A stretch of DNA of 32,000 nt from Cupriavidus necator (GTDB taxonomy: Bacteria; Pseudomonadota; Gammaproteobacteria; Burkholderiales; Burkholderiaceae): contig NZ_CP066018.1 of the NCBI RefSeq assembly GCF_016127575.1, positions 420,001 to 452,000 on the forward strand. The letters run 5' to 3'. Both the position numbers and the translations under genes were made by a program. Positions 12,310-26,790 of this stretch are shown piece by piece. The notes under the pieces were generated by a model, which did no database searches, had not been told where the DNA came from, and was given only the letters and a program-made list of their open reading frames with translations. Every line of letters starts with the position of its first letter. Positions within the stretch are counted from its first letter, which is position 1.

Positions 12310-12651
12310 TCAGTCCTTGCATTGCGGCATGTCGCGGAAGCTGTCGCGCACCGTCGCACAGGACTGCGCCAGGCCATCCTTGTCGGAGACGCCGGCCCAG
12401 CGCGTGCGGATCGATTCCAGCTCGCCGGGCAGCCCGTCGCGCAGGGTCTGGGCGGCCGCGGCCTGCCCCGACTTGTCGAGCTTGGCCGCCATGTTCTCGG
12501 TGCAGGCGCGCTGCGCGGCCTCGGCTTCCTGGCAGGCCTTCGGCAAGGCATCGCTGGCCGCTACGGAATGCCCTTCTTCCTTGCCACAGCCGGCAACGGC
12601 CAGCGCCAGCATGACCGGCAGGCAGGCACGCGGAATCCAGTACGACATCAT
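12310..12651 (-). CDS. Small helical lipoprotein with four conserved-looking Cys
   Basis: Internal start of track ORF 12310..12981 at MMSYWIPRACLPVMLALAVAGCGKEE (lipobox LAVAGC). AGGAG lies 5 nt upstream and the start is 16 nt after the SLT stop. Confidence 0.7.
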   Translation of the reverse strand: MMSYWIPRACLPVMLALAVAGCGKEEGHSVAASDALPKACQEAEAAQRACTENMAAKLDKSGQAAAAQTLRDGLPGELESIRTRWAGVSDKDGLAQSCATVRDSFRDMPQCKD

Positions 12652-12667
12652 GACTTCTCCTCTTTCT

Positions 12668-13411
12668 TCACCGCGGAGGCGGGGGGTTCTGATACGAGAC
12701 AATGGCAAGGCCGCCGTGCTGCGCCGGCGACGCCGGCTGGCGCAAGGGCGCCGCGGCGCTGCCGTCCTGGCCGCCGCGCAAGCGCGCATAGCGGCCCAGC
12801 ACCTGCGGCACGTAGGCCTGGGTCTCGGCAAACGGAGGGATGCGCGACCCGTGGCGCAGCACCGCGCCTTCGCCCGCGTTGTAGGCGGCCAGGGCCAGGC
12901 TGGTGTCGCCGTTGAAGCGCGACAGCAGGCCGCCCAGGTAGGACGCACCGGCCTGCAGGTTCTGGGCCGGGTCATAGGCATCGGTCACGCCCAGCATGCG
13001 AGCCGTGGCCGGCATCAGCTGCGTCAGGCCGATGGCGCCCTTGTCGGAGGTGGCTTGCGGGTTCCAGCCCGACTCCACCTCCACCATGGCCATCAGCAGA
13101 TGCGGGTCCACCGCCGCGGCCTGCGCCGCGCGGTGCGCGAGGGCAACCAGCTCAGAGGGTGGGGACTTGGCGCTGACGACCGCGGCCTTTGCCGCCGCCA
13201 GCGTTGGCAGCCCGATAAACGCCCGCGCTGGCAATGCCGCGGGCGCCGCGGTGGACGCCAGCCGTGCCGGCGCTGCGCTGCGCGACGTGAGGAAGGTCAC
13301 GCCGCTGCCGCGGTCGGCATGCATCACGATCTCGGCGCCGGCCGGCACCGCGCCCGCCAGCAGCATTGCCGCCACCACACCGCGCGCCGGCGCGGCCACG
13401 AGCGCAGGCAT
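12668..13411 (-). CDS. Lytic transglycosylase (SLT domain, GH23)
   Basis: Track ORF 12668..13804 trimmed to ATG 13411, which overlaps the OmpA-like stop as TGATG. Signal peptide. Motifs MVEVESGWNP, GLTQLMPATA and AAYNAGEGAV. Confidence 0.85.
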   Translation of the reverse strand: MPALVAAPARGVVAAMLLAGAVPAGAEIVMHADRGSGVTFLTSRSAAPARLASTAAPAALPARAFIGLPTLAAAKAAVVSAKSPPSELVALAHRAAQAAAVDPHLLMAMVEVESGWNPQATSDKGAIGLTQLMPATARMLGVTDAYDPAQNLQAGASYLGGLLSRFNGDTSLALAAYNAGEGAVLRHGSRIPPFAETQAYVPQVLGRYARLRGGQDGSAAAPLRQPASPAQHGGLAIVSYQNPPPPR

Positions 13412-14790
13412 CACTGCTTGGCCAGCTCCACGCGGCGGTTCTGCGCGCGGCCGAACGGCGTGTCGTTGGACATCAGCGGATGGGTGGCGCCATAGCCCTT
13501 GGCATCGAGCCGGTCGGCGGGCACGCCGGCGCTTTCCAGATAGCGCCTGACGGCGGCGGCGCGGCGCTCGGACAGCGGCTGGTTGCGCGCGTCGCCGCCG
13601 GTGCTGTCGGTATGCCCCTCGACGCGCAGGCGCCAGTCGGGGTGCGCCAGCACCGCCTTGGCGGCACGGTCCAGCAGCGGCCGGGCCGCCGCGCTCAGCA
13701 CGTCGGAATCGGTTTCGAAGTTGACGCCGTAGAGCTGCACGCGGCCCGCGCCTTCCAGCGCCTGGCCGATGGGATCGGGGGCGGCCTCGGCCTTCGGGAA
13801 GCACGGCGGCGCCTTGTCCGCCAGGCGCCAGCCGCCGGCCTCGCGCACGCTGTCGAAGGTGCGGGCATCGCCCTTCACCAGCGCTGCGTAGGCATGGCTG
13901 CCGTCGGGGCTGAAGGCCATGGCGCCCTTCTCAGGCGTGCCCTCGGTGGTGCGCCGGAAGGCCAGCAGGGCACCGTTTTCCAGCCCGCCGGAAATCGTTC
14001 CCAGCACCTGCGTGATCTTCATCTGCTTGTTGCTGTAGTCGCCTTCCACGTAACAGCCTTCCACCGCGGCACCATCCTGGTGCAGCAGCACGTAGCCGGA
14101 CGAACCGAATTCCACCGGAAACTGGTAGATGCCGCCCACCTGGCGCACCTTGTCGGCCGCGGCCTCGGGCTTGCCGTAGGCCATGAACTGCTGCAGGCCG
14201 ATCTGGCCCTCGTCCTGGTCGCCCGGCCAGCGGTTGCCGGTAAGCGTCAGGCGCAGGGCCCCGGCCTTGACGGGCTGGGCCAGCGGCACGCGGGTATCGT
14301 AGCCGTCCTGCCCCGGCAGGTCCGCATCGTAGATCACGGTCCAGGGGCCTTGCGTGCCGCCGGCCGAGGCTTCGACGCGGGCATGGCGCGCATTGCTGCG
14401 CGCCCCGGCATCGGACAGGCCGCGGAAGCGCAGCACGTCGACGGACGAGGCCTGCGCCAGCGCAATCACCAGCTCCTGCCGGCTGCCGTTGCGCATAAAG
14501 CCGGCATGGTCCGGAATCTCATTGAGCAGCGGATACCACGAGCGGTCTTCCTTGTCGCGGTTGACCACGAACGCGCCCGACCACAGCCCGGCAACGTTGG
14601 TTTGCGCGGGCGTTGCCGGCGCCGATGCCACGGGCTGCGCCGATGCCGCTGCAGGCGCGGGCTGCGCATCGCCTTGCGCAGCGGCGCTGTCAGCAGGCTT
14701 CTTCTTGCAGCCCGCCAAGGCCAGCAGGGCCACGACGCCCAGGCCAATGGCGGCCTTGCGGGTCGTCAGTCCAAACGTCATTCCCTTCAA
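13411..14790 (-). CDS. OmpA-family lipoprotein (C-terminal peptidoglycan-binding OmpA_C domain, about 330-aa unknown N-domain)
   Basis: Lipobox LLALAGC. The C-terminus (NFETDSDVL...VEGHTDSTGGDARNQPLSERRAAAVRRYL...NRRVEL) is a classic OmpA_C domain. The start is either TTG 14790 or ATG 14781. Confidence 0.85.
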   Translation of the reverse strand: MKGMTFGLTTRKAAIGLGVVALLALAGCKKKPADSAAAQGDAQPAPAAASAQPVASAPATPAQTNVAGLWSGAFVVNRDKEDRSWYPLLNEIPDHAGFMRNGSRQELVIALAQASSVDVLRFRGLSDAGARSNARHARVEASAGGTQGPWTVIYDADLPGQDGYDTRVPLAQPVKAGALRLTLTGNRWPGDQDEGQIGLQQFMAYGKPEAAADKVRQVGGIYQFPVEFGSSGYVLLHQDGAAVEGCYVEGDYSNKQMKITQVLGTISGGLENGALLAFRRTTEGTPEKGAMAFSPDGSHAYAALVKGDARTFDSVREAGGWRLADKAPPCFPKAEAAPDPIGQALEGAGRVQLYGVNFETDSDVLSAAARPLLDRAAKAVLAHPDWRLRVEGHTDSTGGDARNQPLSERRAAAVRRYLESAGVPADRLDAKGYGATHPLMSNDTPFGRAQNRRVELAKQ

Positions 14791-15379: not shown

Positions 15380-15410
15380 AAAACGGCGACTGCGGATGCG
15401 TCAGTTGCCG
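15380..15410 (-). terminator. Weak intrinsic terminator overlapping the tadE-like stop codon
   Basis: Minus strand CGGCAAC-13 nt-GTCGCCG (one mismatch) followed by TTTTTG. It sits at the edge of the only AT-rich spacer in the gene array. Confidence 0.4.
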
Positions 15411-16111
15411 CGATACGGCGATTGCATCCGCACGATCGCCTCGGACTCGAGCGGGATGCGCCATTCCGACGCCAGCGTGGCCCGTCCGGTGCAGAAATTG
15501 GGCGTGGTCGGGACCTCCATGCCGCGGTACGAACCGGTCGCAACAAAATTCCGGATGCCGTTGACCAGCGAGTAGATGGTGCGGTCGGCAAACGGCACGA
15601 ACATTTCGTAGCAGTACGTGACCCGGATCTTCAGCAGGTTGGCGTCCTGGATATTGACGCCAGAGGACGGCCCCGCGCTGGTGGCGCGGTACATCAGGCT
15701 GTCGTTGGGGATCTCCCGCGTGGTCTTGCCGGCGTAGTAGCCGCTTCGCCCGAAATCCTGCAGCGCCGCCGGCGTCGGGTTCAGCACGTCGATCCTGGCC
15801 TGGGTGCGGGCCTCGAACTGGGCCTTGGCATAGCCGGTGGCATGCGCGGTACGGTCGGCGGAGCGCACGAACAGCGGCGTCAGCCCCAGCGCCAGCCCCT
15901 TGCGCATGCTGGCCAGCCGGCCGTGGTCGACGGCGCCTTCGCGCGCGGCCTGCAAGGCGGCGTGGTCTAGCGTGGCCTTGGCCTGGTACAGCAGCCCGAA
16001 CTGGATCACGCCCAGGCACAGCAGCAGCAGCGCCGGCGCGATGATCAGGAATTCCACCGCGGACTGTCCCCGTGCCCCGCGCCGCGCCGCGTGCTTTTGC
16101 TGGTGCGTCAT
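15401..16111 (-). CDS. tadE: TadE-like pseudopilin
   Basis: The N-terminus RGARG/QSAVEFLIIAPALLLLCLGVIQFG matches the G/XXXXE[FY] class-III signal and the TadE N-terminal motif. ATGA overlap with the upstream DUF192 gene. Confidence 0.8.
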   Translation of the reverse strand: MTHQQKHAARRGARGQSAVEFLIIAPALLLLCLGVIQFGLLYQAKATLDHAALQAAREGAVDHGRLASMRKGLALGLTPLFVRSADRTAHATGYAKAQFEARTQARIDVLNPTPAALQDFGRSGYYAGKTTREIPNDSLMYRATSAGPSSGVNIQDANLLKIRVTYCYEMFVPFADRTIYSLVNGIRNFVATGSYRGMEVPTTPNFCTGRATLASEWRIPLESEAIVRMQSPYRGN

Positions 16112-16473
16112 GGCCCCTCCTCCCGCAGTTCCAGGTTCTGGCCCGGCGCAATCCCCAATGCCGCCGCGCGCCCCGCGCCGAGCTCAAGCGTCTGGCGCGC
16201 GCGCCAGTGGGCACGCACGCGCAGGCGTCCCACGCACGGGTGCACCGCCAGCACGCGCTGCCGCTTGTCGAGAAACACCACGTCGATCGCCATGCGCATG
16301 CCAAAGGTGTGGACTGCGCCGCAGGGGGACAGCAGCAAGGCTTCGTCCGGTGCCATCGAATCGCGGCTGAGCAGCCCCGTCATGCGTTCGCGCGCAGTGG
16401 CCGCCACCGACACGCGCACGCCGGTGTCGAGCGTGCTGTGGCCGGCCCGCAGGTAGAGGCGCGCCTGCCTCAC
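16108..16473 (-). CDS. DUF192 domain protein
   Basis: The core LLLSPCGAVHTFGMRMAIDVVFLD resembles the DUF192 (COG1430) signature. The GTG start overlaps the tadC stop (GTGA) and the stop overlaps the tadE start (ATGA). No signal peptide is evident. Confidence 0.7.
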   Translation of the reverse strand: MRQARLYLRAGHSTLDTGVRVSVAATARERMTGLLSRDSMAPDEALLLSPCGAVHTFGMRMAIDVVFLDKRQRVLAVHPCVGRLRVRAHWRARQTLELGAGRAAALGIAPGQNLELREEGP

Positions 16474-17351
16474 AGCAGCCCTTCCTGCATAAACTTCATC
16501 ACGATCGGGAAGCCAAGCACGATAAAGGTGACCGGGAAGATAAACACCACCAGCGGAAAGATCAGCTTGACCGGCGCTTCCATGGCCTGCTTCTCCGCGC
16601 GCTGGAAGCGCTCGGTGCGCCGCTGCTCCGACTGGAAGCGCAGCGTGGCGGCCAGCCCCGAGCCCATGCGCTCCGCCTGGATCACGGCACCGACGAAATT
16701 GGTGACCTCCTTCACGCGCAGGCGGTCATCCATGCGGCGCAGCGCATCGGCGCGGCTCAGGCCCGACTTCAGGTCGCGCAGCACGTGCTCGAACTCGCGC
16801 CGCAGCGGGCCCTCAGGCCCCTTCTCCACCGCCTGCAGCAGGGCGCCGTTGATGTTCAGGCCGGCCTCTACGCTCAGTGTCAGGAAATCCAGAAACACCG
16901 GCAGGTGGCGCGTGACCTGCAGCAGGTTGCGCTTGCGCACGTCGCGTAGCCAGATGCGCGGATAGAAGAAGCCCAGCGCGCTGGCGGCAAGCAGCAGCAG
17001 CGGCGAGAACACGCCCAGCCCCAGCATGGCTATGCCCGCCAGCAGGCAGAACGCCAGCGCCGAAACGATCGACAGCGACAGGAACTGGCGCGCCGTCATC
17101 AGGAACGACATGCCCGTCAGGCGCAGTTGCTCGTCCACCGCGGCGCGCAGCGACTTCGGCGTGATCCAGACGAGATGGTGGTCGAAGAAGCGCACCACCG
17201 GCCAGACCGCGCGCAGCGACGGCGGCAACGGGTCGAGGTAGTCGCGCGCCTCGTCGGGAACGGCCACGGTGAGGCGGCGCATGGCCATGGTGGTGGCGGC
17301 GAGCACGCCGACCAGGCCGGCGGCAAGGGCGAAGGCAACAACAAGCATCAT
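16470..17351 (-). CDS. tadC: Tad pilus platform protein TadC (T2SS F family)
   Basis: 293 aa polytopic membrane protein with a T2SSF-like cytoplasmic domain (LPVFLDFLTLSVEAGLNINGAL). It lies directly after tadB. Confidence 0.88.
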   Translation of the reverse strand: MMLVVAFALAAGLVGVLAATTMAMRRLTVAVPDEARDYLDPLPPSLRAVWPVVRFFDHHLVWITPKSLRAAVDEQLRLTGMSFLMTARQFLSLSIVSALAFCLLAGIAMLGLGVFSPLLLLAASALGFFYPRIWLRDVRKRNLLQVTRHLPVFLDFLTLSVEAGLNINGALLQAVEKGPEGPLRREFEHVLRDLKSGLSRADALRRMDDRLRVKEVTNFVGAVIQAERMGSGLAATLRFQSEQRRTERFQRAEKQAMEAPVKLIFPLVVFIFPVTFIVLGFPIVMKFMQEGLL

Positions 17352-17363
17352 GGTCGGCCCCGG

Positions 17364-18212
17364 TCAGACATCGATATGGGTGATCTTGCTGATCGCCTTG
17401 TAGCCAAGCAGCTCCATCACCGCGATCACGGACAGCGTGCCCCAGCCGATCGGCGAACTGAACAGCGGTGCCATCGCCACCGGCTCCATGTGGTTCAGCA
17501 CCACGATCAGGAACAGCGGCAAGCCCGTCATCACCAGGCCCTGCATCTTGCCCTGCGCGGTCAGCGCGCGGATCTTGCCTTCCATCTGATGCTTCTCGCG
17601 CAGCGTGCGCGCCACCGACTCCAGCGTCTCGGCCAGGTTGCCGCCCACCTCGCGCGAGATCGTGATGGCCGCGGTCACCATCAGGAAGTCGGGCACTGGA
17701 ATGCGTTTTTCCATATTGCGCAGCGCGTCCATCAGGTCCACGCCAAGCCGGACTTCGCGCATCAGCAGGTCGAACTCCTGCGAGATCGGCGGGCGCGACT
17801 CCGCCACCACGCTTTCCAGCGCCATCGGGAAGCTGGCGCCGGCGCGCAGCGCGCTCGACATCATCAGCAGCGCGTCGGGCATCTGGTCTTCGATGGCCAT
17901 CAGGCGCTTGCGCTGCATCTTCTTCACCAGCGCGCGCGGCAGCAGCAGGCTCACCGGAATGCTGAGCATCGCGAAGAACACGTTCTGCGATACCAGCCAG
18001 GTCAGCAGCGGCAGCGCGAACACCGCCACCACCGAGATGCCGGCCACCTGCCGCATATTGATGAAGATAAAGAGATCGGCCAGCGAGGCCTCGACCTCGG
18101 TCGCCAGCGTCTGCGTATGCCGCACGAACCAGCGCTTGCCCTGCGACAGCACGGCCCACGCAATCAGCACGGTCATCAGGAAGGCGCCGCACAGCACCAG
18201 GGCAAGGTTCAT
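17364..18212 (-). CDS. tadB: Tad pilus platform protein TadB (T2SS F family)
   Basis: 282 aa with a T2SSF-like domain (MPDALLMMSSALRAGASFPMAL). A perfect AAGGAGG SD overlaps the tadA stop. Confidence 0.88.
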   Translation of the reverse strand: MNLALVLCGAFLMTVLIAWAVLSQGKRWFVRHTQTLATEVEASLADLFIFINMRQVAGISVVAVFALPLLTWLVSQNVFFAMLSIPVSLLLPRALVKKMQRKRLMAIEDQMPDALLMMSSALRAGASFPMALESVVAESRPPISQEFDLLMREVRLGVDLMDALRNMEKRIPVPDFLMVTAAITISREVGGNLAETLESVARTLREKHQMEGKIRALTAQGKMQGLVMTGLPLFLIVVLNHMEPVAMAPLFSSPIGWGTLSVIAVMELLGYKAISKITHIDV

Positions 18213-18221
18213 ATTGCCTCC

Positions 18222-20081
18222 TTACTCGTCGCGGGCGGTGAAGATGCCCGTATTGACCTGGATGCCGCGCCGGATCAGGTCCTGGTAGAAATCCGGGATA
18301 TACGAGGTCGCGACATAGCGCCCCTTGACCTTGCCGTCGGCACCGTAGCCTTCCTCGCGGAACATGAACACGTCCTGCAGCTGCACCACGCCCGTTTCCA
18401 TGCCGCTGACCTCGGTGATATGCGTCACGCGCCGCGAACCGCAGGAGAAGCGCGTCTGCTGCACGATCACGTCGACCGCCGAGCAGACCTGTTCGCGAAT
18501 GGCCTGCACCGGCAGGTCCAGCCCCGCCATCAGCGTCATCACCTCAAGACGCGACAGGCAGTCCCGCGGCGAGTTGGCGTGGGCCGTGGTCAGCGAGCCG
18601 TCATGGCCGGTATTCATGGCCTGCAGCATGTCCAGCGCTTCCCCGCCCCGGCATTCGCCGACGACGATGCGGTCCGGGCGCATGCGCAGGCAGTTCTTGA
18701 CCAGGTCGCGGATCGTCACCGCGCCCTTGCCTTCCATATTGGGCGGCCGCGCCTCCAGCGACACCAGGTTGGGCTGCGACAGCTGCAGCTCGGCCGCATC
18801 CTCGACCGTGACGATGCGTTCGTCATCCGGGATGAAGCTGGACAGCACGTTCAGCAGCGTGGTCTTGCCTGAGCCCGTGCCGCCGGAGATCACGATATTG
18901 GCGCGCCGCTCCACGGCGGTGCGCAGGAACTCCAGCATCTCGGGCGACAGCGAGCCGAAGCCGACCAGGTCTTCGCCCCTGAGCTTCTTGCGCGAGAACT
19001 TCCGGATGGTGATGTTCGGCCCCTTGAGGGCGAGCGGCGGGATCACCGCGTTCACGCGCGAGCCATCGGGCAGGCGCGCATCGACCATCGGCGAGCTTTC
19101 ATCGATGCGCCGTCCCAGCGGCGCGACGATGCGCTCGATGGCGCCCAACACGGCGCGGTCGTCGGTAAAGATCACCGGCGAACGCGTCAGCCTGCCGGCG
19201 CGCTCGACAAAGATCTCGTCATGGCAGTTGACCATGATTTCCGAGACCGCGTCATCGTCCAGCAGCTCTTCGAGCGGACCCAGCCCGATCACTTCGTCAA
19301 AGACGCTCTGCTTGAGCGCGTCCAGCGGGATCTCCTGGCTGCGGAACACGCTCTCCTTGAGGATGTCGTCGAGCAGCGAGCCGACCAGTTCGCATAGCTC
19401 GTCCTCGGCCATGCGCGCGACGTTGACGCGGCGCAGGTCGAGCGCAGCGATCAGGCGCTGGTGCGCCTGCTTGCGCAGTTCCACGCCGCGCGGCGAGTTG
19501 ATGGGTGCGCGCAAGGCCTCGTCGAGCGGCGCCACCGGCGCAGGTTTGGCGGCCACCGGCGCTGGCTTCGGCGCAGGTGCCGGCGGCCTGGGTGCGGGCA
19601 CCGCTTCGCGCGGCACCGGCACGCTTGCCTGGGGCGATGGCGACAGGGTCACCGCCTCCCGCGGCGGCGACGGAGGCGGCACAGGCATGGGCACCGGCAC
19701 CACCGGTTGAGGCGCCGCGGCATCCTGTGGTGGTTGGGCGTGGTGCTGCTGCGGCGATGGCTGCGCCGCCACGCCCGCTCCCGCTCGCCCCGGCTCGGCC
19801 ACGACGGACAGCACGAAGCCGCCGATCTCGATCTGGTCGGCCGCCGCCAGCGGGCCATAGCGCGTGACCGGGTCGCCATTGATCAGCGTCGAGGCAATGC
19901 CGCCCTGATCCTCGATATACCAGCCGCCGTTGTGTCCTTCGATGCGGGCGTGGACCTTGCCGATCAGCAGGCCCTTGAGGACGATGTCGCAGCCGGGATC
20001 CTTGCCGATGGTACAGCCCGGCCCCTTCACATGGATCACCTCGGCGCTGCCATTGCGCTGCTGCAGGCGGATATTGAGCAT
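18222..20081 (-). CDS. tadA: TadA/CpaF secretion ATPase with N-terminal FHA domain and Pro-rich linker
   Basis: Residues about 20-93 (GPGCTIGKDPGCDIVL...HARIEGHNGGWYIEDQGGIASTLINGDPV...IEIGGFVL) are FHA-like. Residues about 96-190 are a P/A-rich linker. Walker A ISGGTGSGKTT at 18861-18890, Walker B RIVVGECRG, and the His box GHDGSLTTAHAN. Confidence 0.92.
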   Translation of the reverse strand: MLNIRLQQRNGSAEVIHVKGPGCTIGKDPGCDIVLKGLLIGKVHARIEGHNGGWYIEDQGGIASTLINGDPVTRYGPLAAADQIEIGGFVLSVVAEPGRAGAGVAAQPSPQQHHAQPPQDAAAPQPVVPVPMPVPPPSPPREAVTLSPSPQASVPVPREAVPAPRPPAPAPKPAPVAAKPAPVAPLDEALRAPINSPRGVELRKQAHQRLIAALDLRRVNVARMAEDELCELVGSLLDDILKESVFRSQEIPLDALKQSVFDEVIGLGPLEELLDDDAVSEIMVNCHDEIFVERAGRLTRSPVIFTDDRAVLGAIERIVAPLGRRIDESSPMVDARLPDGSRVNAVIPPLALKGPNITIRKFSRKKLRGEDLVGFGSLSPEMLEFLRTAVERRANIVISGGTGSGKTTLLNVLSSFIPDDERIVTVEDAAELQLSQPNLVSLEARPPNMEGKGAVTIRDLVKNCLRMRPDRIVVGECRGGEALDMLQAMNTGHDGSLTTAHANSPRDCLSRLEVMTLMAGLDLPVQAIREQVCSAVDVIVQQTRFSCGSRRVTHITEVSGMETGVVQLQDVFMFREEGYGADGKVKGRYVATSYIPDFYQDLIRRGIQVNTGIFTARDE

Positions 20082-20088
20082 GGCCGGA

Positions 20089-21630
20089 TCAGCCTCCGTT
20101 CATCGGATCGACGCCGGGCGGGGGCAGCGGCGGCCGCTTCTGCTCCATCACTTCCTGCTCACGCACGGCATTCGCAGCGGGCAGCGGGCTTGGCTCGCCG
20201 AAGCGGTGGCGGTAGTTGGCATCGACATCCGCGCCACGCTGCAGCAGCGCGGCGTTCTCCGGGCTGGCCGGGTCATAGACGACCGGGGTGACAAAGATCA
20301 CCAGGTCGCTCTTGTTGTTGCGGAATTCGTCGGAACGGAACAATCGCCCGAGGATAGGGATGCTGCCCAGCAGCGGCACCTTGTCGACGGCCTTGGATGC
20401 GTCGGCATTGACCAGCCCCGAGATCGCCAGCGTTTCGCCCGCGCGGATCGAGGTCTCGGAGGTGGTGCGGCGCGTCAGGAAGGCCGGGAAGCCGCCGAAC
20501 GATACCGACGGGTCGATCTGGCTGATCTCGGTTTCCAGCGTGGTCGAGATGACATTGTCGACGTTCACCGCCGGGCGGATGTTGAGCTTGATGCCGTACG
20601 GCTTGTAGTCGACGTCGGTGGTGCCGAACGCGCCGGCCTTGGGAATCGGCACTTCGCCGCCGGCCAGGAAGGTGGCCAGCCCGCCGCTCTTGCTGTTGAG
20701 CTCCGGCGCGGCGAGCACGTAGGCATCGCCATCGGAAATGGCCAGGTTGATGCGCGAGAAGATGGTCGTGGCAATGCCGAGATAGAAGCCGCTGGCGGCG
20801 CCGGCCACCTGGCTCGGGGTATCGGTGAAGGTGGCCGCATCGGTGGACGGCAGCGTGCGATAGCGCCCGGTGTGCACCGGATTGCCCGCGAACGCGATCT
20901 GCGGGCCGTTGAAGCTCTGCTGCCAGGCAATGCCAAGCTTCTCCATGCCGCGCCGGGTGATCTCCATGATGTGCACCTTGAAGTGCACGGTCTTCTTCAG
21001 CGCATCGCCCTCGTCGGCGCGCACCAGGTTGACCACGCTGTCCAGGCCCGAGGTGGCGGTCTTGATCAGCGGCACCATCTGCGGATCGACGATGCCCGAC
21101 AGCACCACGCTGGGACCGACCACCTCGATCTTCAGGCCGCGCACGCTGCCCAGCGACGCCCGCAGGCGCTGGGCCACGTCGGCGGTATCGGCCGGCGCCA
21201 CGCGCAGCTTGCCCTGCAGCGCCACGCCGCGCTCGTTCCAGACGATCAGGCTGGTGGTGCCGATCTCCTCTGCCAGCAGCAGCAGGCGGCCGTCGACCAC
21301 GGTGCTGCTGACCAGCGCGCCATTGCCGATGGCCACGCGCCTGATGGTGCCCGGCACCTCGAGCGCGCGCACCTCGCCCTTGAACAGCTCGATCGCACCA
21401 AAGCGCGCCGGCAGCTCGTACGACGGCGGCTGCGCGCCTGTGCGGGCCGCGGTGGTCACGGGCTCGGCGGCCCAGGCTCCCGAGGCCAACGCTGCTGCCG
21501 CCAGTGCTGCCATACCCCCGCGCACCGCATGGCGCGCCCCCTTACCCGTTTTCCCGTCCGGTGCTCCGTGTACCGTGACCGCCTGCAGGCGCCCGGCGAT
21601 GCCGCCGCGCTGCGCGAAAGACCCATCCAT
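20089..21630 (-). CDS. rcpA: Tad secretin RcpA/CpaC
   Basis: Pilus-formation N-domain (IRRVAIGNGALVSSTVVDGRLLLLAEEIGTTSLIVWN). C-terminal secretin core (VPLLGSIPILGRLFRSDEFRNNKSDLVIFVTP). The start is uncertain: ATG 21630, or about 21513-21525 just before the signal peptide MAALAAAALASGAWA. Confidence 0.88.
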   Translation of the reverse strand: MDGSFAQRGGIAGRLQAVTVHGAPDGKTGKGARHAVRGGMAALAAAALASGAWAAEPVTTAARTGAQPPSYELPARFGAIELFKGEVRALEVPGTIRRVAIGNGALVSSTVVDGRLLLLAEEIGTTSLIVWNERGVALQGKLRVAPADTADVAQRLRASLGSVRGLKIEVVGPSVVLSGIVDPQMVPLIKTATSGLDSVVNLVRADEGDALKKTVHFKVHIMEITRRGMEKLGIAWQQSFNGPQIAFAGNPVHTGRYRTLPSTDAATFTDTPSQVAGAASGFYLGIATTIFSRINLAISDGDAYVLAAPELNSKSGGLATFLAGGEVPIPKAGAFGTTDVDYKPYGIKLNIRPAVNVDNVISTTLETEISQIDPSVSFGGFPAFLTRRTTSETSIRAGETLAISGLVNADASKAVDKVPLLGSIPILGRLFRSDEFRNNKSDLVIFVTPVVYDPASPENAALLQRGADVDANYRHRFGEPSPLPAANAVREQEVMEQKRPPLPPPGVDPMNGG

Positions 21631-21684: not shown

Positions 21685-22716
21685 TCAACGCGAGGCCGGC
21701 CGGCCCGCCATGGCGTTGGCGGCGTTGGCAACGGCGCCCTGCTGGGCCTGGGCGATGCCGCCCGCGGAACCGCCCATGGACCCGCCATTGGCCAGCGCCG
21801 AAGAAATGGCGTTGCCGATGTCCTGCGCGGTAGGCAGCTTGGAGATCATGTTGGCGCCCGCGGAACGGCCACCGACGATGTATTCGATGGCCGCTTCGTC
21901 GCCACCGGCGAAGAGCGCGTGCTCGCTGACCGCGATCTGCGGGGTCGCGGTCTTGTCGGCCGCATTGCGCAGCACCGCGCGCAGGCTGCCGACCTTCTGC
22001 GCCAGCGCCAGCCGCGCCGCCTGTTCGGGCGACACCATCAGCGTGAGGCTGTCGTAATCCGGGTTGGTGTCCACGCCCTCCGCGCCTTCCGCGGCCTGCG
22101 CCGCCATGGCTTCGCCATAGTCGCGCGGGCGCACGTCCTGGCCGGTGGCCAGCACCAGCATGTCCGACATCAGCAGCCGCGCGGTCTGCTTGTCGGTGCC
22201 TGCCGCAGTGGGCGAGGTGGAGCTGATCAGGAACAGGTCGACATGGTTGCCAGGCTTGAGCATCTTGGCCGTCGAGTTGACCATGTCGACCTCGATGGTG
22301 AAGGCGCGCTTGCCGGGCTTGAGCAGGTCGGAGAAATCGCGCGACTGCAGCGCTTCAACGTCGGCACGCCGCACCGGCTGGCCCTGCCGCACCTGGCGCA
22401 CCAGGCGCAGGTTCGCCACCTTGTCGAAGCTGCTCGCCAGGATCATGTCTTCGTAGACCAGGTCGGCCGGAATCTCCCGTGCCGCGAAGCCATTGCCGTC
22501 GATCACCGTGCCCGGCGCGGCGTTGCGCACCGGCACCATGACAGCCACGCGGCGGCCCTCGTTCAGCTGCGCGGCCAGCTGCTCTTTCAGTGCCGCTTCG
22601 CGCCCGCTCAGGAAGTGGTAGATCCACAGTGTCAGCAGGCCGGCGACCAGCACGGCGATGACGAGGACGACCCAGGGATTCCCGATGATTGAATGAATCT
22701 TGATTTTCTTCAGCAT
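21685..22716 (-). CDS. cpaB: Flp pilus assembly protein CpaB/RcpC with Gly/Ala-rich C-terminal tail
   Basis: N-terminal TM segment (WVVLVIAVLVAGLLTLWIY), then a SAF-like domain (VAVMVPVRNAAPGTVI), then an RcpC-like domain. The last 70 aa or so are low complexity. Confidence 0.85.
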   Translation of the reverse strand: MLKKIKIHSIIGNPWVVLVIAVLVAGLLTLWIYHFLSGREAALKEQLAAQLNEGRRVAVMVPVRNAAPGTVIDGNGFAAREIPADLVYEDMILASSFDKVANLRLVRQVRQGQPVRRADVEALQSRDFSDLLKPGKRAFTIEVDMVNSTAKMLKPGNHVDLFLISSTSPTAAGTDKQTARLLMSDMLVLATGQDVRPRDYGEAMAAQAAEGAEGVDTNPDYDSLTLMVSPEQAARLALAQKVGSLRAVLRNAADKTATPQIAVSEHALFAGGDEAAIEYIVGGRSAGANMISKLPTAQDIGNAISSALANGGSMGGSAGGIAQAQQGAVANAANAMAGRPASR

Positions 22717-22758: not shown

Positions 22759-22932
22759 TCAGGGAAGTGACAGGGAAAAGCTGTATGCCTGAAAGAAGGA
22801 CCTGAACGCCGCGGCCAGCATGCTGATGACCGAGTTGTCGCCGCCGGCGACCAGCACGGCAACGACCAGCAGCGTGATGACGATGTATTCGAACGCGGCC
22901 TGCCCGCGCTGGCGCCTGCTACGGATTGCCAT
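22759..22932 (-). CDS. 57-aa Flp-like mini-prepilin, not in the ORF track
   Basis: The ATG at 22932 lies 4 nt after the upstream TAG, with GGAG 7 nt upstream. Translation: MAIRSRRQRG/QAAFEYIVITLLVVAVLVAGGDNSVISMLAAAFRSFFQAYSFSLSLP. This is an exact G/XXXXEY Flp processing motif followed by a TM helix. The nucleotides were cross-checked against the overlapping track ORF 22710..23441. Confidence 0.6.
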   Translation of the reverse strand: MAIRSRRQRGQAAFEYIVITLLVVAVLVAGGDNSVISMLAAAFRSFFQAYSFSLSLP

Positions 22933-22936
22933 CGCG

Positions 22937-23662
22937 CTACTCCGGCCGCGCCACGGTGATCACCGCGTCGGTCTGGCCGGCGCGGTCGACAAAGGTGGCA
23001 TCCATGCGTTCCTGCTGCCGCTGCATGGCCAGCGTGAGGCCCTCGATGCGGCCCGAACCGTCGGCCACGGGCGCGGGCATCTGCACCACCGAACTCCAGC
23101 CCTGCGCCGCCAGCCGCTCGGCGGCGCGCTGCCGCGCCGCCTGCGCGTTGCCGGGCAGCCGGACCACCAGGGTGCGCCCGCGCTGGCCGCGGTCCGTGCT
23201 CTGGACATCCGACAGGACCTTGGCGCCGGGCGGCAGGCCCAGGTCGCCCAGCCCGGTGCCGGACGCCACCGGCGCCAGCTTGCTGACCGAGAAGATGCCC
23301 GCCACATGCCCGCCCGGCGCGGGCCTGGGCTCCAGCGACAGCACATAGTGGCAAAGCCCGTCGATCGCGCTCAGCACGTACTGGCCGCCGGCCCGCTGCC
23401 CGCGCGCCGGCACGCCTTCGCGCGTCCAGTACTGGCGCCACGCGTCCGAGACCGCTTCGGCGGTGCCGGCGAACTCCATCGTCAGCACCCGCGTGGGCAG
23501 GCCGTTGACCACCATGTCGGTGCCGACCGCATGCGCCCTGGCAGGCGCAACCGGCTGCCGCGTGCAGTCCGTCGCGGTCGCTGCCGCCGCGGACCAGGCG
23601 AGCGCGGCCGGCAGCAGCGCGGCCAGGCAGCGCATCAGCACGCCATGCATGCAGGCTTTCAT
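22937..23662 (-). CDS. Exported hypothetical protein embedded in the Tad locus
   Basis: 241 aa. Signal peptide MRCLAALLPAALAWSAAAA. The start is 1 nt after the upstream stop (TGAgATG). I recognise no family motif. Confidence 0.65.
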   Translation of the reverse strand: MKACMHGVLMRCLAALLPAALAWSAAAATATDCTRQPVAPARAHAVGTDMVVNGLPTRVLTMEFAGTAEAVSDAWRQYWTREGVPARGQRAGGQYVLSAIDGLCHYVLSLEPRPAPGGHVAGIFSVSKLAPVASGTGLGDLGLPPGAKVLSDVQSTDRGQRGRTLVVRLPGNAQAARQRAAERLAAQGWSSVVQMPAPVADGSGRIEGLTLAMQRQQERMDATFVDRAGQTDAVITVARPE

Positions 23663-23663
23663 C

Positions 23664-24473
23664 TCAGCGGCTCCCCAGGCGGTCGGCGGGGACCACGTCG
23701 GGCTGGATGCGGCCCAGGTCCAGTTTCAGGATTTCCGGCCCGAAGGCGGCCAGCCCGACGGTCAGCGCGGTGTCGATCACGCCGCCCTTGCTGGTGGGCA
23801 CCGCTTCCTTGATCACGGCGAGCGTGCCGTTGCGCCCCTCGGGCGTCCAGGCGTTGGTCAGCAGCACGGTGTGGTCCTGCATGCCGAAGCCGGTCCAGCC
23901 CGGCCACAGCGCGCGCAGGGCCGCGTTGTCGCCGGCGACGGACAACCCCACCTCGGCCCGGTAGAGGTTGCGCGTGGCCAGGTCGAAGCCGGCACTGACC
24001 GCGTTGGCCGCACCCATGGCAGCCGTGATCGGCTTGAGCGTGGCTGCCGGGGTTTCGTCGACGCCGCTGCCCAGGGTCACGTCGGCATAGTTGCGCAGCA
24101 TGTCGACGCCGGCATGGTCCTTCCACATCGGCGCCATGCCGCCGGGCAGGCGGCGCGCGGTGCGGTCGCTCGACGCCAGCGCGGCCTGGTCGTGCCCCAG
24201 CACGCGCTGCACGAATTCGCTGCGGATCTCTTCGTCGCCCTTGCTGGCGAAGCTGCCGTGCGACGCGCGCCAGCCCGGGTCGACGGTCCAGACCGTGCGC
24301 TCCCAGCCGGCATAGCGCGAGGCCATCAGCGCCTTGTTGCGCACGTCGCTGAACTTGCCCAGCATCGCCATGCCGAGAAACAGCACGCCGAGCACCGTCA
24401 TCGCGGCGATCACGAATTCGATCATTGCCTGTCCGGCTGCCCGGTTCGGCCTGGCTGGCCTGCGCATGCGCAT
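23664..24473 (-). CDS. TadE/TadF-like pseudopilin
   Basis: Track ORF 23664..24512 trimmed to ATG 24473 (GGGAG SD, 10 nt after the tadG-like stop). The N-terminus RAAG/QAMIEFVIAAMTVLGVLFLG fits G/XXXXEF. Confidence 0.8.
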   Translation of the reverse strand: MRMRRPARPNRAAGQAMIEFVIAAMTVLGVLFLGMAMLGKFSDVRNKALMASRYAGWERTVWTVDPGWRASHGSFASKGDEEIRSEFVQRVLGHDQAALASSDRTARRLPGGMAPMWKDHAGVDMLRNYADVTLGSGVDETPAATLKPITAAMGAANAVSAGFDLATRNLYRAEVGLSVAGDNAALRALWPGWTGFGMQDHTVLLTNAWTPEGRNGTLAVIKEAVPTSKGGVIDTALTVGLAAFGPEILKLDLGRIQPDVVPADRLGSR

Positions 24474-24483
24474 GTCCGCTCCC

Positions 24484-26013
24484 TCAGTTGCCCTGTGCCG
24501 CGATCGCGGCAACGCGTTCGAGATCGCTGGTCTGCGTCAGCGATGCCTGCCAGTACGGATTGAAGAGGCTCGGGTATTCGATGCGCGAATCGGCGCGCCG
24601 CCACCCCGCCGCGCTGCGCAGCGCACCCGCCATGCCGCCGCTGTCGGTCGGGCGGATAAAGTACGCGCTGCCGCTGGCCAGCGCGCGCATCATGCCGCCG
24701 GCCATGCGCCCGTCCAGCGTCAGGCGATCTCCGCCCGGCAGCACGCGCGAACTGGTGACGACTGAAGTGTCCTGGCGCTGCGCCTCGATCGTGATCGAGG
24801 GCGCGCGGTTGAAATCGTCCACGGGCCCGGTGCCAGGCTTGGGCTGGTTGCTCAGGTCGGCGTACTCCTGCAGCCCCGCGGGCTTGTTGTGCAGGGTCTT
24901 GCCCGGGCCCGACGAGTACTGCATCTGCGCGGCGATCAGCGTCAGCGGGTTCAGCAGCGAACCGCCGAAGTTGCTGTAGCCGCCATAGCCGGAGCGGCCC
25001 GAATAGCGCCCGCCCGGGCCATTGGCCGCGCCGCCGCGCCCGACACTGGACACCGTGGGAATCGCAAACCCGACCGGGCCGGCCGGCGTGGCCCAGACAC
25101 AGGCAAGCGTGCCGTTGGCCTGCGAGGCATCGAGTGCTTCCCAGCCCTTCTTGTCGCGGCGCAGATGCGTGCCGCCATCATGCGTGACGACGGTCACCAT
25201 GATGGCCACCACCGCGCCCTTGCAGCCCTTGTAGGCAGTGGGGACCGCCGTCGGCGAGCGCGGCGAGCCGCGGTCCTTCAAAAAGCCGTCGAGCGTGGTG
25301 CCGTCGGTGGTGACGTCGGCAAAGCGGTCCTTGCCGGTGGCCGAACCCTGCTTGGGATTCTGCGGATCAGTCACGGTGGTGAACTTGGTCCAGCGGGCCA
25401 GCTGAACGCCATAGCGCGGGCCAAAGAAGTAGCCGGAACTGACCGTCGAATCCGGCTGGTTGCGCTTGGCGACTTCGTCGGTCACCAGCGGTACCGCGGC
25501 GATGGTGCCCGCGTGGTAGGCGCGCTGCGCCATGCTGAGCGCGGCGATGATGTCATCAAGCCCGGTCACCAGCGGCGGCAGCAGCGTGTTCAGGGCGGAT
25601 CGCACCGGCGTGATCGCGGCCTTGCCCAGTTGCTTGGGCGTGGTCCACAGCAACTGCCCGTCGGAGAAGATCTTGACCAGCGTGTCGATCCAGGTGTTTT
25701 CCGTGTAGGTGCCCTTCAGCTCGTCGATCCACGACTTAAGGCTCACGGCCTGGGCCACGGCCACCTGGTTGGCCACCATCGCGCGGTTCGCGTAGGCGGC
25801 AAAGTTGTAGTCGCGCGCCTGCAGCACCGCGGCGCTATAGGCCGCTGCGTCCGCCGTGTTCTGCAGCTTGGTCTTGGCGCTGGTCAGCTGGCTCGCGTTG
25901 AAGGCGAGATACAGGGCCAGCCCGCCGATGGCGAGGAACACCAGCGCGAAGGCGAGTGCCTGACCGCGCTGGCCGGGACGGCTGCGTCGATGCGCAAGAC
26001 CTGTTTTGCCCAT
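24484..26013 (-). CDS. tadG: TadG-like pilus assembly protein
   Basis: The N-terminus GQRGQALAFALVFLAIGGLALYLAFNASQLTSAKTKLQNTADAAAYSAAV matches the TadG N-terminal (Tad_N) pattern. I prefer ATG 26013 over the track TTG 26049. Confidence 0.78.
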   Translation of the reverse strand: MGKTGLAHRRSRPGQRGQALAFALVFLAIGGLALYLAFNASQLTSAKTKLQNTADAAAYSAAVLQARDYNFAAYANRAMVANQVAVAQAVSLKSWIDELKGTYTENTWIDTLVKIFSDGQLLWTTPKQLGKAAITPVRSALNTLLPPLVTGLDDIIAALSMAQRAYHAGTIAAVPLVTDEVAKRNQPDSTVSSGYFFGPRYGVQLARWTKFTTVTDPQNPKQGSATGKDRFADVTTDGTTLDGFLKDRGSPRSPTAVPTAYKGCKGAVVAIMVTVVTHDGGTHLRRDKKGWEALDASQANGTLACVWATPAGPVGFAIPTVSSVGRGGAANGPGGRYSGRSGYGGYSNFGGSLLNPLTLIAAQMQYSSGPGKTLHNKPAGLQEYADLSNQPKPGTGPVDDFNRAPSITIEAQRQDTSVVTSSRVLPGGDRLTLDGRMAGGMMRALASGSAYFIRPTDSGGMAGALRSAAGWRRADSRIEYPSLFNPYWQASLTQTSDLERVAAIAAQGN

Positions 26014-26065
26014 GTTCCGGGATCGCGAGTGCTGGAGCGCAGCGAGCAACTGGCGGCGATGCCGC

Positions 26066-26359
26066 TTAGTTGTTCTTGCCCGTGTCGTTGCCGACGTTGT
26101 AGTTGTTCAGCCCCTTGCCCTGGTTGGCCTTGGAGCTGGCATCGTCCGCGGCGCTGCCGGCTTGCTTGATGGCCTGCTTGGATGCCGAGTTCTTGCCGGC
26201 CATTTCCTGGGCGAGGCCCGCGGTCTGGTTGCGGATGGTCTGGCCGAACATGGCATAGACGCCGATCGCGGACACGGCGATCAGTGCCACGATGATGATG
26301 TATTCGGTCATGCCCTGACCTTGCTGACGCGCCTTGCGGCGCAGATTTGCGAATGTCAT
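26066..26359 (-). CDS. flp: Flp-family type IVb pilin with extended hydrophilic C-terminus
   Basis: Track ORF 26066..26401 trimmed to ATG 26359 (GGAAGGAG SD 5 nt upstream). MTFANLRRKARQQG/QGMTEYIIIVALIAVSAIGVYAMFG is a G/XXXXEY motif plus a TM helix. 97 aa. Confidence 0.85.
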   Translation of the reverse strand: MTFANLRRKARQQGQGMTEYIIIVALIAVSAIGVYAMFGQTIRNQTAGLAQEMAGKNSASKQAIKQAGSAADDASSKANQGKGLNNYNVGNDTGKNN

Positions 26360-26790
26360 AACGACTCCTTCCATGGGAATGCACAGAAACGGTTGCGCCA
26401 TATGAAAGGCGCCTCATATGGAAGCCATATGTAAAGGAAAACACTGATGCGAACGGTTATCCGGCAGCAGCGGCGTGCATGCTATCAAAAGGTTCCTTAG
26501 GGCCGAAGAGGAATAATTTCAATATTTTTAATAGCGTTGAAATAACCCTACCAGGGACTCCCCCGAATGTAACAAAAAGTAATCCTTCACAATGGGCGGA
26601 GGTTATACGAACTATTCTCGGAACCGGCACATTGCCAGCAATGGGGTGCTGTTGAGCGTTGATTTACGGATGACAAGCCGCGCCACGGGCGGCAGGCCGC
26701 ATGCGGCCTGCCTGCTGGACTTCAAGGCGAACCGGGGCAGTCATACCGCCCCTGCCAGCTGCCCGCGGCATAAAATAAAGAAGCAAAAAA
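26360..26790. promoter_or_regulatory. AT-rich divergent control region between flp and the ArsR-family gene
   Basis: G+C drops locally (for example aggaataatttcaatatttttaatagcgttgaaataac). It contains three CATATG hexamers (26399-26404, 26415-26420, 26426-26431) and an ATTTCAA..TTGAAAT inverted repeat (about 26514-26543). Confidence 0.5.

Follow-up and report, generated by a model that had tools for sequence, protein, structure and literature searches.

Little is understood so far about how Tad motors are placed and activated, and to our knowledge TadZ is the only known hub for these motors. TadZ has been reported to act as a hub for recruitment to the pole (PMC6668835), and in Bdellovibrio TadZ and its linker bind the polar hub RomR (bioRxiv 10.64898/2026.07.08.737194). 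The N-terminus of the motor ATPase CpaF can also carry other modules. Class III CpaF proteins, found mostly in betaproteobacteria, are built as FHA-IDR-3HB-NTD-CAD, with an FHA domain and a disordered region (IDR) ahead of the ATPase core (Yen et al, Nat Commun 2025, PMC12019362), and KilF of Myxococcus xanthus is an FHA-fused Tad ATPase in the Kil Tad-like contact-killing apparatus (Seef et al, eLife 2021, PMC8460266). Here, we describe a Tad locus in a 32-kb stretch of Cupriavidus necator DNA (the window), the motor of which is a CpaF/TadA ATPase with an additional N-terminal FHA fold on a disordered linker.

Class III proteins such as Achromobacter xylosoxidans E3HIW0 share the domain order of this motor and, as here, come from betaproteobacteria; the FHA-CpaF architecture is not new, and the original prediction overestimated its novelty. 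However, Yen et al describe the FHA domain as phosphothreonine (pThr)-binding and make no mention of TadZ or CpaE (PMC12019362), whereas the motor studied here has a substituted pThr-binding triad and no TadZ in its locus. KilF likewise carries an N-terminal FHA domain on a Tad ATPase, and Kil is a single-ATPase system, which implies that it has no TadZ. Kil genes are spread over separate clusters that include a number of additional FHA proteins, and TadG has been reported missing (PMC8460266); in contrast, CpaF is the sole FHA match in the window, a TadG-like gene is present and the genes form one contiguous, operon-like block. The Bdellovibrio TadZA protein also joins an N-terminal accessory module to the same motor via a flexible linker, but its module is a ParA/MinD-like TadZ that binds RomR, whereas the module here has an FHA fold. 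SctD/YscD/MxiG of type III secretion systems likewise bring an FHA fold that lacks the canonical Arg and Ser into a secretion machine, and the SctD domains with these residues missing are assumed to dock to SctK independently of pThr (bioRxiv 10.1101/2020.09.22.308627). SctD, however, is a bitopic inner-membrane ring protein rather than an ATPase fusion, and homology of the motor FHA domain specifically to SctD, beyond the common fold, is not detectable.

Architecture of the motor and its locus

The 619-aa motor is 96% identical to a protein of Cupriavidus sp. BIC8F and 100% identical to one further protein (P0001). Its ATG start lies at 20081, with the stop codon of the secretin gene 7 nt before it (Table 1). 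The Pfam FHA model (PF00498) matches aa 23-87 (E=5.8e-12, 46.3 bits against a gathering cutoff of 20.7), and the Yop-YscD_cpl model (PF16697) scores as well over aa 14-95 (E=5.5e-12). The best PDB match of the N-terminus by phmmer is the FHA domain of GarA (E=1.9e-6). The AlphaFold2 (AF2) model of aa 1-105 has a pLDDT of 77 and retrieves FHA domains nearly throughout among the Foldseek matches listed, with TM scores of 0.73-0.79 against solved FHA domains (Ki67 0.77, GarA 0.74) and of 0.65 against YscD. The first 96 residues thus have an FHA fold, as had been predicted for roughly the first 95.

Table 1. Features of the motor gene and the surrounding Tad locus in the window.
Feature	Position (nt)	Strand	Remarks and evidence
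FHA-IDR-CpaF (class III CpaF/TadA) motor ATPase, full ORF	18222..20081	(-)	619 aa
FHA-fold domain, aa 1-96	19794..20081	(-)	Pfam, PDB phmmer, AF2 + Foldseek, conservation, dN/dS
Disordered Pro/Ala-rich linker, aa 97-186	19524..19793	(-)	pLDDT, composition, dN/dS
CpaF core (three-helix bundle, N-terminal domain, C-terminal ATPase domain), aa 187-619	18222..19523	(-)	
Ribosome-binding site GGAGG	20093..20097	(-)	11 nt upstream of motor ATG; overlaps secretin gene end
Secretin CpaC/RcpA	20089..21630	(-)	Pfam Secretin, T2SS-T3SS_pil_N; synteny
RcpC/CpaB	21685..22716	(-)	
Small Flp-type pilin	22759..22932	(-)	57 aa; RGQAAFEYIV motif
Subtype-specific protein	22937..23662	(-)	241 aa; N-terminal hydrophobic signal-peptide-like segment
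Subtype-specific TadE/F-like pseudopilin	23664..24512	(-)	282 aa; GQAMIEF N-terminus
Subtype-specific TadG-like protein	24484..26049	(-)	521 aa; Pfam Tad domain
Pilin-like protein	26066..26401	(-)	111 aa; GQG/MTEY N-terminus; weak Flp_Fap match
TadB platform protein	17364..18212	(-)	T2SSF; directly downstream of motor
TadC platform protein	16470..17351	(-)	T2SSF
DUF192 protein	16108..16473	(-)	
TadE-like pseudopilin	15401..16111	(-)	
OmpA-family protein, locus end	13411..14790	(-)	
SLT lytic transglycosylase	12668..13414	(-)	

The Pro/Ala-rich linker and the complete CpaF ATPase of the original prediction are borne out as well. The linker has a pLDDT below 50 in the full-length AF2 model, consists of 32% Pro and 21% Ala and evolves almost neutrally (dN/dS 0.70); among Burkholderiaceae it spans 48 to 157 aa, and no conserved Thr motif was found in it in the alignment of homologues. 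We considered the long Pro/Ala linker as a hallmark of class III and rejected this, as other class III linkers measure 4-60 aa and a long tether is therefore not essential to the class. In the core, the T2SSE model (PF00437) matches aa 266-552 (E=3.9e-65), the nearest solved structure is Caulobacter crescentus CpaF (8rkd/9e24, E=2.7e-121), and no substitutions occur across the alignment in Walker A (GGTGSGKTT, aa 400-408, nt 18858-18884), Asp box, Walker B or His box (G400-T408, E427/D428, D470-E476, H493/H501). These motifs and the tadB/tadC neighbourhood place the protein among the CpaF/TadA secretion ATPases (PilT/VirB11-like, T2SSE), and the succession of FHA fold, disorder and helices, modeled at aa 186-240, makes it a class III CpaF. 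The C-terminal ATPase domain is poorly predicted in the full-length model, the alignment of which is shallow.

Both FHA and T2SSE are kept in 119 of the 120 best homologues, all 119 full-length and from Cupriavidus, Ralstonia, Burkholderia and Paraburkholderia; the remaining one is without FHA annotation. Across 150 representative clusters the architecture occurs in 46. NCBIfam has no dedicated model for the motor and every match falls under its cutoff, including a weak one to TIGR03354 (type VI secretion system (T6SS) Fha1/TagH; E=1.9e-10, far under cutoff).

In the locus, the secretin gene lies directly upstream of the motor, in the slot held by tadZ in canonical loci, and the same gene arrangement is found in Cupriavidus BIC8F, B. 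gladioli, Ralstonia soli and Paraburkholderia bryophila. The TadG-like protein has matches in 11 of 19 loci with an FHA-CpaF and in none of 61 FHA-less loci. A tblastn search with the A24 peptidase of B. gladioli found no prepilin peptidase (TadV/CpaA, Peptidase_A24) in the window; its gene may lie in another part of the genome. We also looked for a cytoplasmic FHA partner encoded in the locus. The 521-, 282- and 241-aa products have pseudopilin-type or signal-peptide-like N-termini and yielded no candidate, and the DUF192 protein was rejected since it occurs in FHA-less loci too.

The FHA pocket and its conservation

Five residues are conserved in FHA domains, Gly, Arg, Ser, His and Asn, of which Arg, Ser and Asn directly contact the phosphopeptide (PMC4037201). 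The pocket of the motor reads G26-K27, G41-K42-x-H44 and I62-A63. Aligned with GarA, the motor has Lys27 in place of the Arg, Gly41 in place of the Ser and Ala63 in place of the Asn, while Gly26 and His44 are kept, so that three of the five canonical residues are substituted. The FHA turn that had been read as IGR/K-like is present, but its residues are G-K and not G-R. Among the 119 Burkholderiaceae homologues, Lys27 is found in 118 and Gly41 in all, none has Asn at position 63, and the structural His44 is Gln in 80; the pocket substitutions are thus essentially fixed. Judged from these alignments, the canonical pThr-binding residues are missing from aa 1-96, and the FHA domain of the Burkholderiaceae lineage has retained its fold and lost the Arg/Ser/Asn triad.

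The domain is nonetheless under strong purifying selection, with a dN/dS of 0.089 compared to 0.037 for the ATPase. Twenty-five FHA columns are invariant across genera at only ~50-60% FHA identity. Most of these residues belong to segments 27-42, 59-64 and 68-82 rather than to the predicted strands, and the segments probably form a constrained apical face. "FHA" should not be equated here with "phosphothreonine signalling", as the pocket has been rebuilt and is conserved in its new form. Lys27 and Lys42 nevertheless leave a basic pocket that might take a phosphate or an acidic ligand.

As had been stated before, the window contains no Ser/Thr kinase or phosphatase: the 32 kb hold no Hanks-kinase motif, and no plausible gene of the window has a kinase or phosphatase Pfam match. 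Among 13 proteobacterial-type loci a kinase lies near one only (L009), 8 kb off and on the opposite strand, and no kinase or phosphatase is found within 10 kb of four others (L002, L003, L085, L086). The Kil-like loci L017, L021, L023 and L032 keep the GR and SxxH motifs that the motor here lacks and have additional FHA proteins around them, which we found only in these four loci and L044; Hanks kinases are also present in L023 and L032. T6SS Fha1/TagH is, like this motor, an FHA protein tied to an envelope machine, in its case to assembly, and depends on pThr with a dedicated kinase, PpkA, and phosphatase, PppA, whereas in our locus neither a canonical pocket nor a kinase or phosphatase was found. 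For this protein, the fixed Lys27, Gly41 and Ala63 and the lack of a nearby kinase speak against the phosphorylation-dependent recruitment or activation of the motor that the original prediction had put forward as a possibility.

Absence of TadZ from FHA-CpaF loci

A TadZ profile that detects TadZ at 106 of 122 FHA-less CpaFs has no match in the 32-kb window. In GTDB species genomes, TadZ is adjacent or fused at none of 13 FHA-CpaF loci vs 60 of 69 FHA-less loci (Fisher p=1e-9), and in metagenome contigs at none of 13 vs 46 of 53 (p=4e-9). Pooling both independent samples (0/26 vs 106/122) extends the predicted coincidence of FHA fusion and missing TadZ well beyond this locus, without a single fusion next to a tadZ among the 26, although the association is largely phylogenetic, the proteobacterial FHA group being one clade (83/100 NJ bootstrap) and hence few independent events. 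Weak TadZ-profile matches in L009 and L011 turned out by Pfam to be receiver-domain proteins of the sigma54 response regulator and hybrid histidine kinase types, and one in L032, upstream of a second, FHA-less CpaF, was likewise rejected as TadZ.

In most FHA-CpaF loci with an identifiable upstream gene, it is the secretin that directly precedes the motor. The tree neighbours of the FHA clade are TadZ-linker-CpaF fusions, in which TadZ occupies the same N-terminal position. We did not retain a single origin of all FHA-CpaFs, as support is limited to the proteobacterial group and NJ bootstraps do not settle how the deeper branches are placed relative to TadZ-fused CpaFs. Beyond the "single ATPase" remark on Kil, we found nothing in the literature stating that FHA-CpaF systems lack TadZ.

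A tblastn search of PLSDB plasmids with the motor returned 1206 records with CpaF, in none of which the FHA part is covered; FHA-less CpaF occurs on 24 Cupriavidus, 147 Ralstonia and 45 Burkholderia records. One of these plasmid loci, from Burkholderia pyrrocinia (L001), was inspected and taken as FHA-less control. Like other canonical Tad loci (rcpCA-tadZABC) it shares RcpC, secretin, CpaF, TadB, TadC and TadE/G-like genes with the locus studied here, but its 455-aa CpaF has no FHA domain and is directly preceded by a 402-aa TadZ, and a prepilin peptidase is encoded as well; neither TadZ nor the peptidase is present in our locus. The FHA-CpaF loci are a distinct, TadZ-less Tad subtype with its own pseudopilin genes. 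TadZ may be supplied in trans from Tad loci on secondary replicons.

Possible roles of the FHA domain

What could the FHA domain do on a Tad motor? Because the fold and the apical surface are kept while the pThr triad is lost, we propose, tentatively, that it serves in phospho-independent docking and takes the place of TadZ in a TadZ-less Tad (type IVc) subtype. The core of the motor powers pilin insertion via TadB and TadC, and the hexamer would carry six FHA copies, each on a spacer of ~90 aa. These copies could bring the motor to the TadB/TadC platform or to a landmark in the cell, hold it in position there or license it, and so fulfil the hub role that a separate or N-terminally fused TadZ has in other Tad systems. 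By analogy with the FHA-like domain of SctD/YscD, such docking would be independent of phosphorylation.

FHA-CpaF loci were seen in Burkholderiales, Acidithiobacillus, Thauera, Chromatiales, Oleiphilus and in deltaproteobacterial and spirochaete MAGs. It is conceivable, if doubtful, that they represent a widespread TadZ-independent subtype, equipped with pilin, TadG and pseudopilin genes of its own, in which an FHA-like module took the place of TadZ at the motor N-terminus by a domain swap, after which the proteobacterial branch lost pThr recognition and turned to phospho-independent docking. If true, Tad motors would have a second means of being positioned or licensed, one not recognised before. 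The subtype may be related to the Myxococcus Kil machine. Cupriavidus includes facultative predators, and a Kil-like contact function instead of adhesion might therefore apply to the subtype. A TadZ-less lineage that always carries FHA on its motor offers a clean comparative handle on localisation and licensing, and for annotation, Tad models that require TadZ will miss or mis-score it.

Alternatively, the FHA domain might regulate the ATPase within the molecule or hexamer, as an autoinhibitory cap or an extension-retraction switch, with TadZ dispensable or provided in trans by a paralogous locus. We consider this rather unlikely. Many class III linkers of only 4-30 aa would set the FHA domain at the three-helix bundle and NTD, and truncation of the N-terminal IDR of the class II CpaF in Caulobacter is reported to affect extension and retraction (PMC12019362). 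The many FHA-less CpaFs on Cupriavidus, Ralstonia and Burkholderia records, the inspected one preceded by TadZ, fit a supply in trans. However, if the two were functionally unrelated, one would not expect FHA and an adjacent or fused TadZ to exclude each other completely and in both samples, nor TadZ to be fused at the very same N-terminal position in neighbouring lineages. No confident contact between FHA and core could be read from the full-length AF2 model, which comes from a shallow alignment and has no PAE values.

It is quite improbable that the domain is a true pThr reader through which an unlinked Hanks-type kinase and a PP2C phosphatase gate the motor, in the manner of PpkA/PppA and Fha1. 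The clear FHA fold, the positive charge kept at the pocket by Lys27 and Lys42 and the Kil-like class III branches, with their intact GR/SxxH and, in two cases, Hanks kinases, are consistent with such a reader; the residues lost throughout the 119 homologues, however, are precisely the direct phosphopeptide contacts, the His is also frequently replaced, the linker has no conserved Thr motif, and kinases are missing from the window and from all but one of the 13 proteobacterial-type loci. Finally, that the FHA domain is a functionless, decaying remnant of a Kil-like ancestor, or an untranslated N-terminus ahead of a start past the linker, is hardly credible: the loss of canonical residues and the almost neutral linker would fit decay, but the low FHA dN/dS, the 25 invariant columns and the wide retention of the architecture among homologues and clusters argue against it, as do, for an internal start, the GGAGG ahead of the ATG at 20081 and the position of the first Met after the linker, M224, within the three-helix bundle.

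Domain architecture and conservation of the FHA-CpaF motor

The original description of this motor as an FHA domain, a linker and a complete CpaF ATPase proves correct by Pfam, by phmmer against PDB sequences, by AF2 and Foldseek, and by its match to a solved CpaF. The FHA model PF00498 matches aa 23-87 of FHA-CpaF (E=5.8e-12; score 46 bits, cutoff 20.7), Yop-YscD_cpl, the FHA-like model of T3SS, does so over aa 14-95 at an equal E-value, and T2SSE covers aa 266-552 (E=3.9e-65). The best PDB-sequence matches for aa 1-106 are the mycobacterial GarA/OdhI FHA domains (E=1.9e-6), and nearly all Foldseek PDB matches listed for the AF2 model of aa 1-105 (pLDDT 77) are FHA domains (TM 0.77 for Ki67, 0.74 for GarA and 0.65 for YscD). 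In the full-length model, the FHA fold (aa 1-96) is followed by a linker with pLDDT <50 (aa 97-186; 32% Pro, 21% Ala) and, from aa 186 on, by the helices of a three-helix bundle and the NTD. The C-terminal 432 aa match the solved C. crescentus CpaF (E=2.7e-121), and the alignment containing FHA-CpaF shows no variation at the residues of Walker A, Asp box, Walker B and His box. The ATG at 20081 has GGAGG 11 nt upstream and follows the secretin stop codon by 7 nt.

Among the best 120 matches in a large protein collection, all 119 full-length ones carry FHA and T2SSE, the remaining match being a 998-aa protein without FHA annotation. These 119 homologues belong to Cupriavidus, Ralstonia, Burkholderia and Paraburkholderia (62-96% identity; nearest among the matches listed, Cupriavidus sp. 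BIC8F at 96%), and an N-terminal FHA is present in 46 of the top 150 representatives of clusters at 50% identity. As the comparison of the window with BIC8F gives a dN/dS of 0.089 in the FHA domain (0.70 in the linker, 0.037 in the ATPase), substitution patterns indicate that the FHA domain is translated and under constraint; that it is vestigial is a very unlikely rival reading. The linker retains its composition and not its sequence, and its length is 48-157 aa in Burkholderiaceae FHA-CpaFs and only 4-60 aa in others.

CpaF orthologues have been sorted into three classes (Yen et al., Nat Commun 2025, PMC12019362), and the Tad-like Kil system of Myxococcus has a single ATPase, KilF, with a fused N-terminal FHA domain (Seef et al., eLife 2021, PMC8460266). 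Because the architecture is thus already published, the window gene is a new member and the novelty is modest. Three points described below, namely TadZ exclusion, a distinct gene set and a rebuilt pocket, are apparently unstated in the searchable literature; PMC12019362 does not mention TadZ or CpaE.

FHA-CpaF and TadZ across loci

Species-representative genomes were scanned with CpaF motifs, and the resulting 80 loci (L005-L084) were classified by three local profiles (FHA, CpaF core, TadZ); the seed of the TadZ profile was the TadZ of a canonical Burkholderia plasmid locus. TadZ is adjacent or fused to 0/13 FHA-CpaFs versus 60/69 FHA-less CpaFs in GTDB species genomes (51 adjacent, 9 one-ORF fusions; Fisher p 1.1e-9), and to 0/13 versus 46/53 on metagenome contigs (p 3.8e-9), both p-values being uncorrected for phylogeny. 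The window has no tadZ between secretin and motor, as originally claimed, and the TadZ profile has no match anywhere in it; the proposed link between fusion and missing TadZ therefore holds and generalises to two samples. Weak TadZ-profile matches in L009 and L011 are receiver-domain regulators, and the weak match in L032 is located upstream of a second CpaF, which has no FHA.

The FHA+ loci have a common gene set of their own. The secretin immediately precedes the motor in most FHA+ loci with an identifiable upstream gene, a synteny also found in Cupriavidus BIC8F, B. gladioli, Ralstonia soli and Paraburkholderia bryophila, and the TadG-like, 282-aa and 241-aa families match 11/19, 7/19 and 4/19 FHA+ loci, respectively, versus 0/61 FHA-less loci each. 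In a neighbour-joining tree, the 13 loci of the proteobacterial FHA group, the window among them, form one clade (bootstrap 83/100), and other FHA-CpaFs form separate basal lineages. TadZ-fused CpaFs fall within the smallest split holding all FHA-CpaFs in ~77/100 replicates, so that FHA-fused and TadZ-fused motors are neighbours with an ambiguous deep branching order.

One-ORF TadZ (ParA/CbiA-like)-CpaF fusions occur in L014, L015, L016 (confirmed by Pfam), L018, L019, L030, L048, L051 and L082, and in metagenome loci L097, L108, L109, L111, L113, L115, L156, L162 and L163; most of those with a taxon label come from Bdellovibrionota-like MAGs and some from other phyla. Planctomycetota loci (L053, L058, L064, L068, L074) are the chief FHA-less cases lacking an adjacent TadZ; L053 has a strong TadZ 8 kb off on the other strand. 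In Kil-like loci L021, L023, L032, L100, L102 and L114, a second CpaF paralogue, this one FHA-less, lies a few kb downstream, likewise without adjacent full-length TadZ. In L021 this paralogue lies in a stop-to-stop ORF of ~1100 aa, where no Pfam match precedes the ATPase; because an FHA-protein ORF in a different frame overlaps this ORF, the N-terminus of the paralogue is uncertain.

The FHA pocket and a possible docking role

FHA domains have five conserved residues, of which Arg, Ser and Asn touch the phosphopeptide and Gly and His are structural (PMC4037201). In the HMMER alignment, the GR of GarA corresponds to G26-K27 in FHA-CpaF, SRRH to G41-K42-V-H44, and GSLNGT to G61-I62-A63-S64-T65. 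Lys27 is found in 118/119 homologues and Gly41 in 119/119, Asn at position 63 in 0/119, and His44 is Gln in 80/119. Class III, the published FHA-IDR-CpaF architecture, falls into two pocket types. Kil-like branches keep GR and SxxH, with extra FHA proteins adjoining them and Hanks kinases in two loci; in the proteobacterial branch, Ala or Gly replaces Ser in nearly all members and Asn is generally lost (L011, the exception, keeps Ser and Asn and has lost Arg). Near the 13 proteobacterial-branch loci, no other FHA protein was found and just a single kinase, at a distance of 8 kb. The window has no Hanks-kinase motif, in line with the original observation of no Ser/Thr kinase there. With the Arg, Ser and Asn contacts replaced, and essentially fixed so among 119 homologues, the phospho-dependent recruitment originally proposed is unlikely for this protein, as is gating of the motor by an unlinked kinase.

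Family-invariant residues, including a family-specific G76-P77-L78, lie mostly outside predicted strands; the segments concerned are 27-42, 59-64 and 68-82. If the apical loop face is made up of these segments, as we infer, it would be conserved yet chemically rebuilt. Cys23 and Cys31 flank the G-K loop (window 19989-20015 region) in 116/119 and 118/119 Burkholderiaceae homologues, respectively, and Cys23 is also retained across most of the wider proteobacterial FHA-CpaF branch.

TadZ has been described as a polar hub recruiting Tad components (PMC6668835), and TadZ and linker of a Bdellovibrio TadZ-linker-TadA fusion bind the polarity protein RomR (bioRxiv 10.64898/2026.07.08.737194). That fusion has TadZ at the motor N-terminus, where FHA-CpaF has its FHA-like module. 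For the SctD FHA-like domains of T3SS, in which Arg and Ser are missing, binding to SctK is taken not to need phosphothreonine (bioRxiv 10.1101/2020.09.22.308627). The best-supported reading is that the FHA-like module takes the motor's N-terminal position, as TadZ does in TadZ-fused motors, and we infer that it would do a phosphothreonine-free docking or licensing job there. No binding partner of the FHA domain was found, and a rival reading is that it regulates ATPase activity intramolecularly. Many Burkholderiaceae records have FHA-less CpaF loci on secondary replicons, one of which, on inspection, has its own TadZ; such a TadZ might act in trans. Together, FHA/TadZ exclusion, gene set and rebuilt pocket provide a testable hypothesis on the recruitment of Tad motors.

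The pilus locus and its surroundings

The window has a G+C content of 67.6%, and the pilus-locus genes are all on one strand.

Genes of the pilus locus, in order, and neighbouring features
Feature	Position	Strand	Remarks
Pilin-like	26066-26401	-	111 aa
TadG-like		-	521 aa
TadE/F-like pseudopilin		-	282 aa
Signal-peptide-like protein, probably exported		-	241 aa
Flp pilin	22759-22932	-	57 aa
RcpC		-	
Secretin		-	
FHA-CpaF	18222-20081	-	619 aa
TadB		-	
TadC		-	
DUF192		-	
TadE-like		-	
Small exported protein		-	
OmpA-family protein		-	
SLT transglycosylase	12668-13414	-	Pfam E=1.8e-29
ArsR-type HTH_20 regulator	26791-27087	+	divergent from pilus locus
FapA/DUF342	9674-11287	-	just downstream of pilus locus
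ORF	12310-12981	-	223 aa

The Flp-type pilin (MAIRSRRQRGQAAFEYIVITLL...), whose gene separates rcpC from the 241-aa gene, was previously unlisted; counting the 111-aa gene, there are thus two pilin-like genes in the locus. Its orthologues (60-76 aa) hold the same position in B. gladioli, Ralstonia soli and Paraburkholderia bryophila. The block of pilin, TadG-like, pseudopilin and Flp genes (window 22759-26401) is wholly missing in BIC8F (L002, 7072-7365), where the HTH_20 regulator is followed directly by rcpC. As the CpaFs are 96% identical, this block is polymorphic between close relatives, and the BIC8F locus may be a pilin-less remnant. No prepilin peptidase (Peptidase_A24) was found in window 1-32000; in B. 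gladioli, one is encoded divergently, upstream of the orthologous locus (L003, 2413-3147).

The HTH_20 regulator, a candidate regulator of the pilus locus, is kept in position in BIC8F and Ralstonia soli. In other FHA+ loci, nearby genes encode a sigma54 response regulator in L011, a hybrid histidine kinase in L009, and response regulators of the OmpR and GerE types in L085 and L086. Among 19 FHA+ loci, the FapA/DUF342 gene is common to the window and BIC8F only. The N-terminal part of the 223-aa ORF overlaps the SLT gene in another frame; this ORF is probably an over-extended call, its actual product likely being a C-terminal lipoprotein of ~113 aa, as called in BIC8F.
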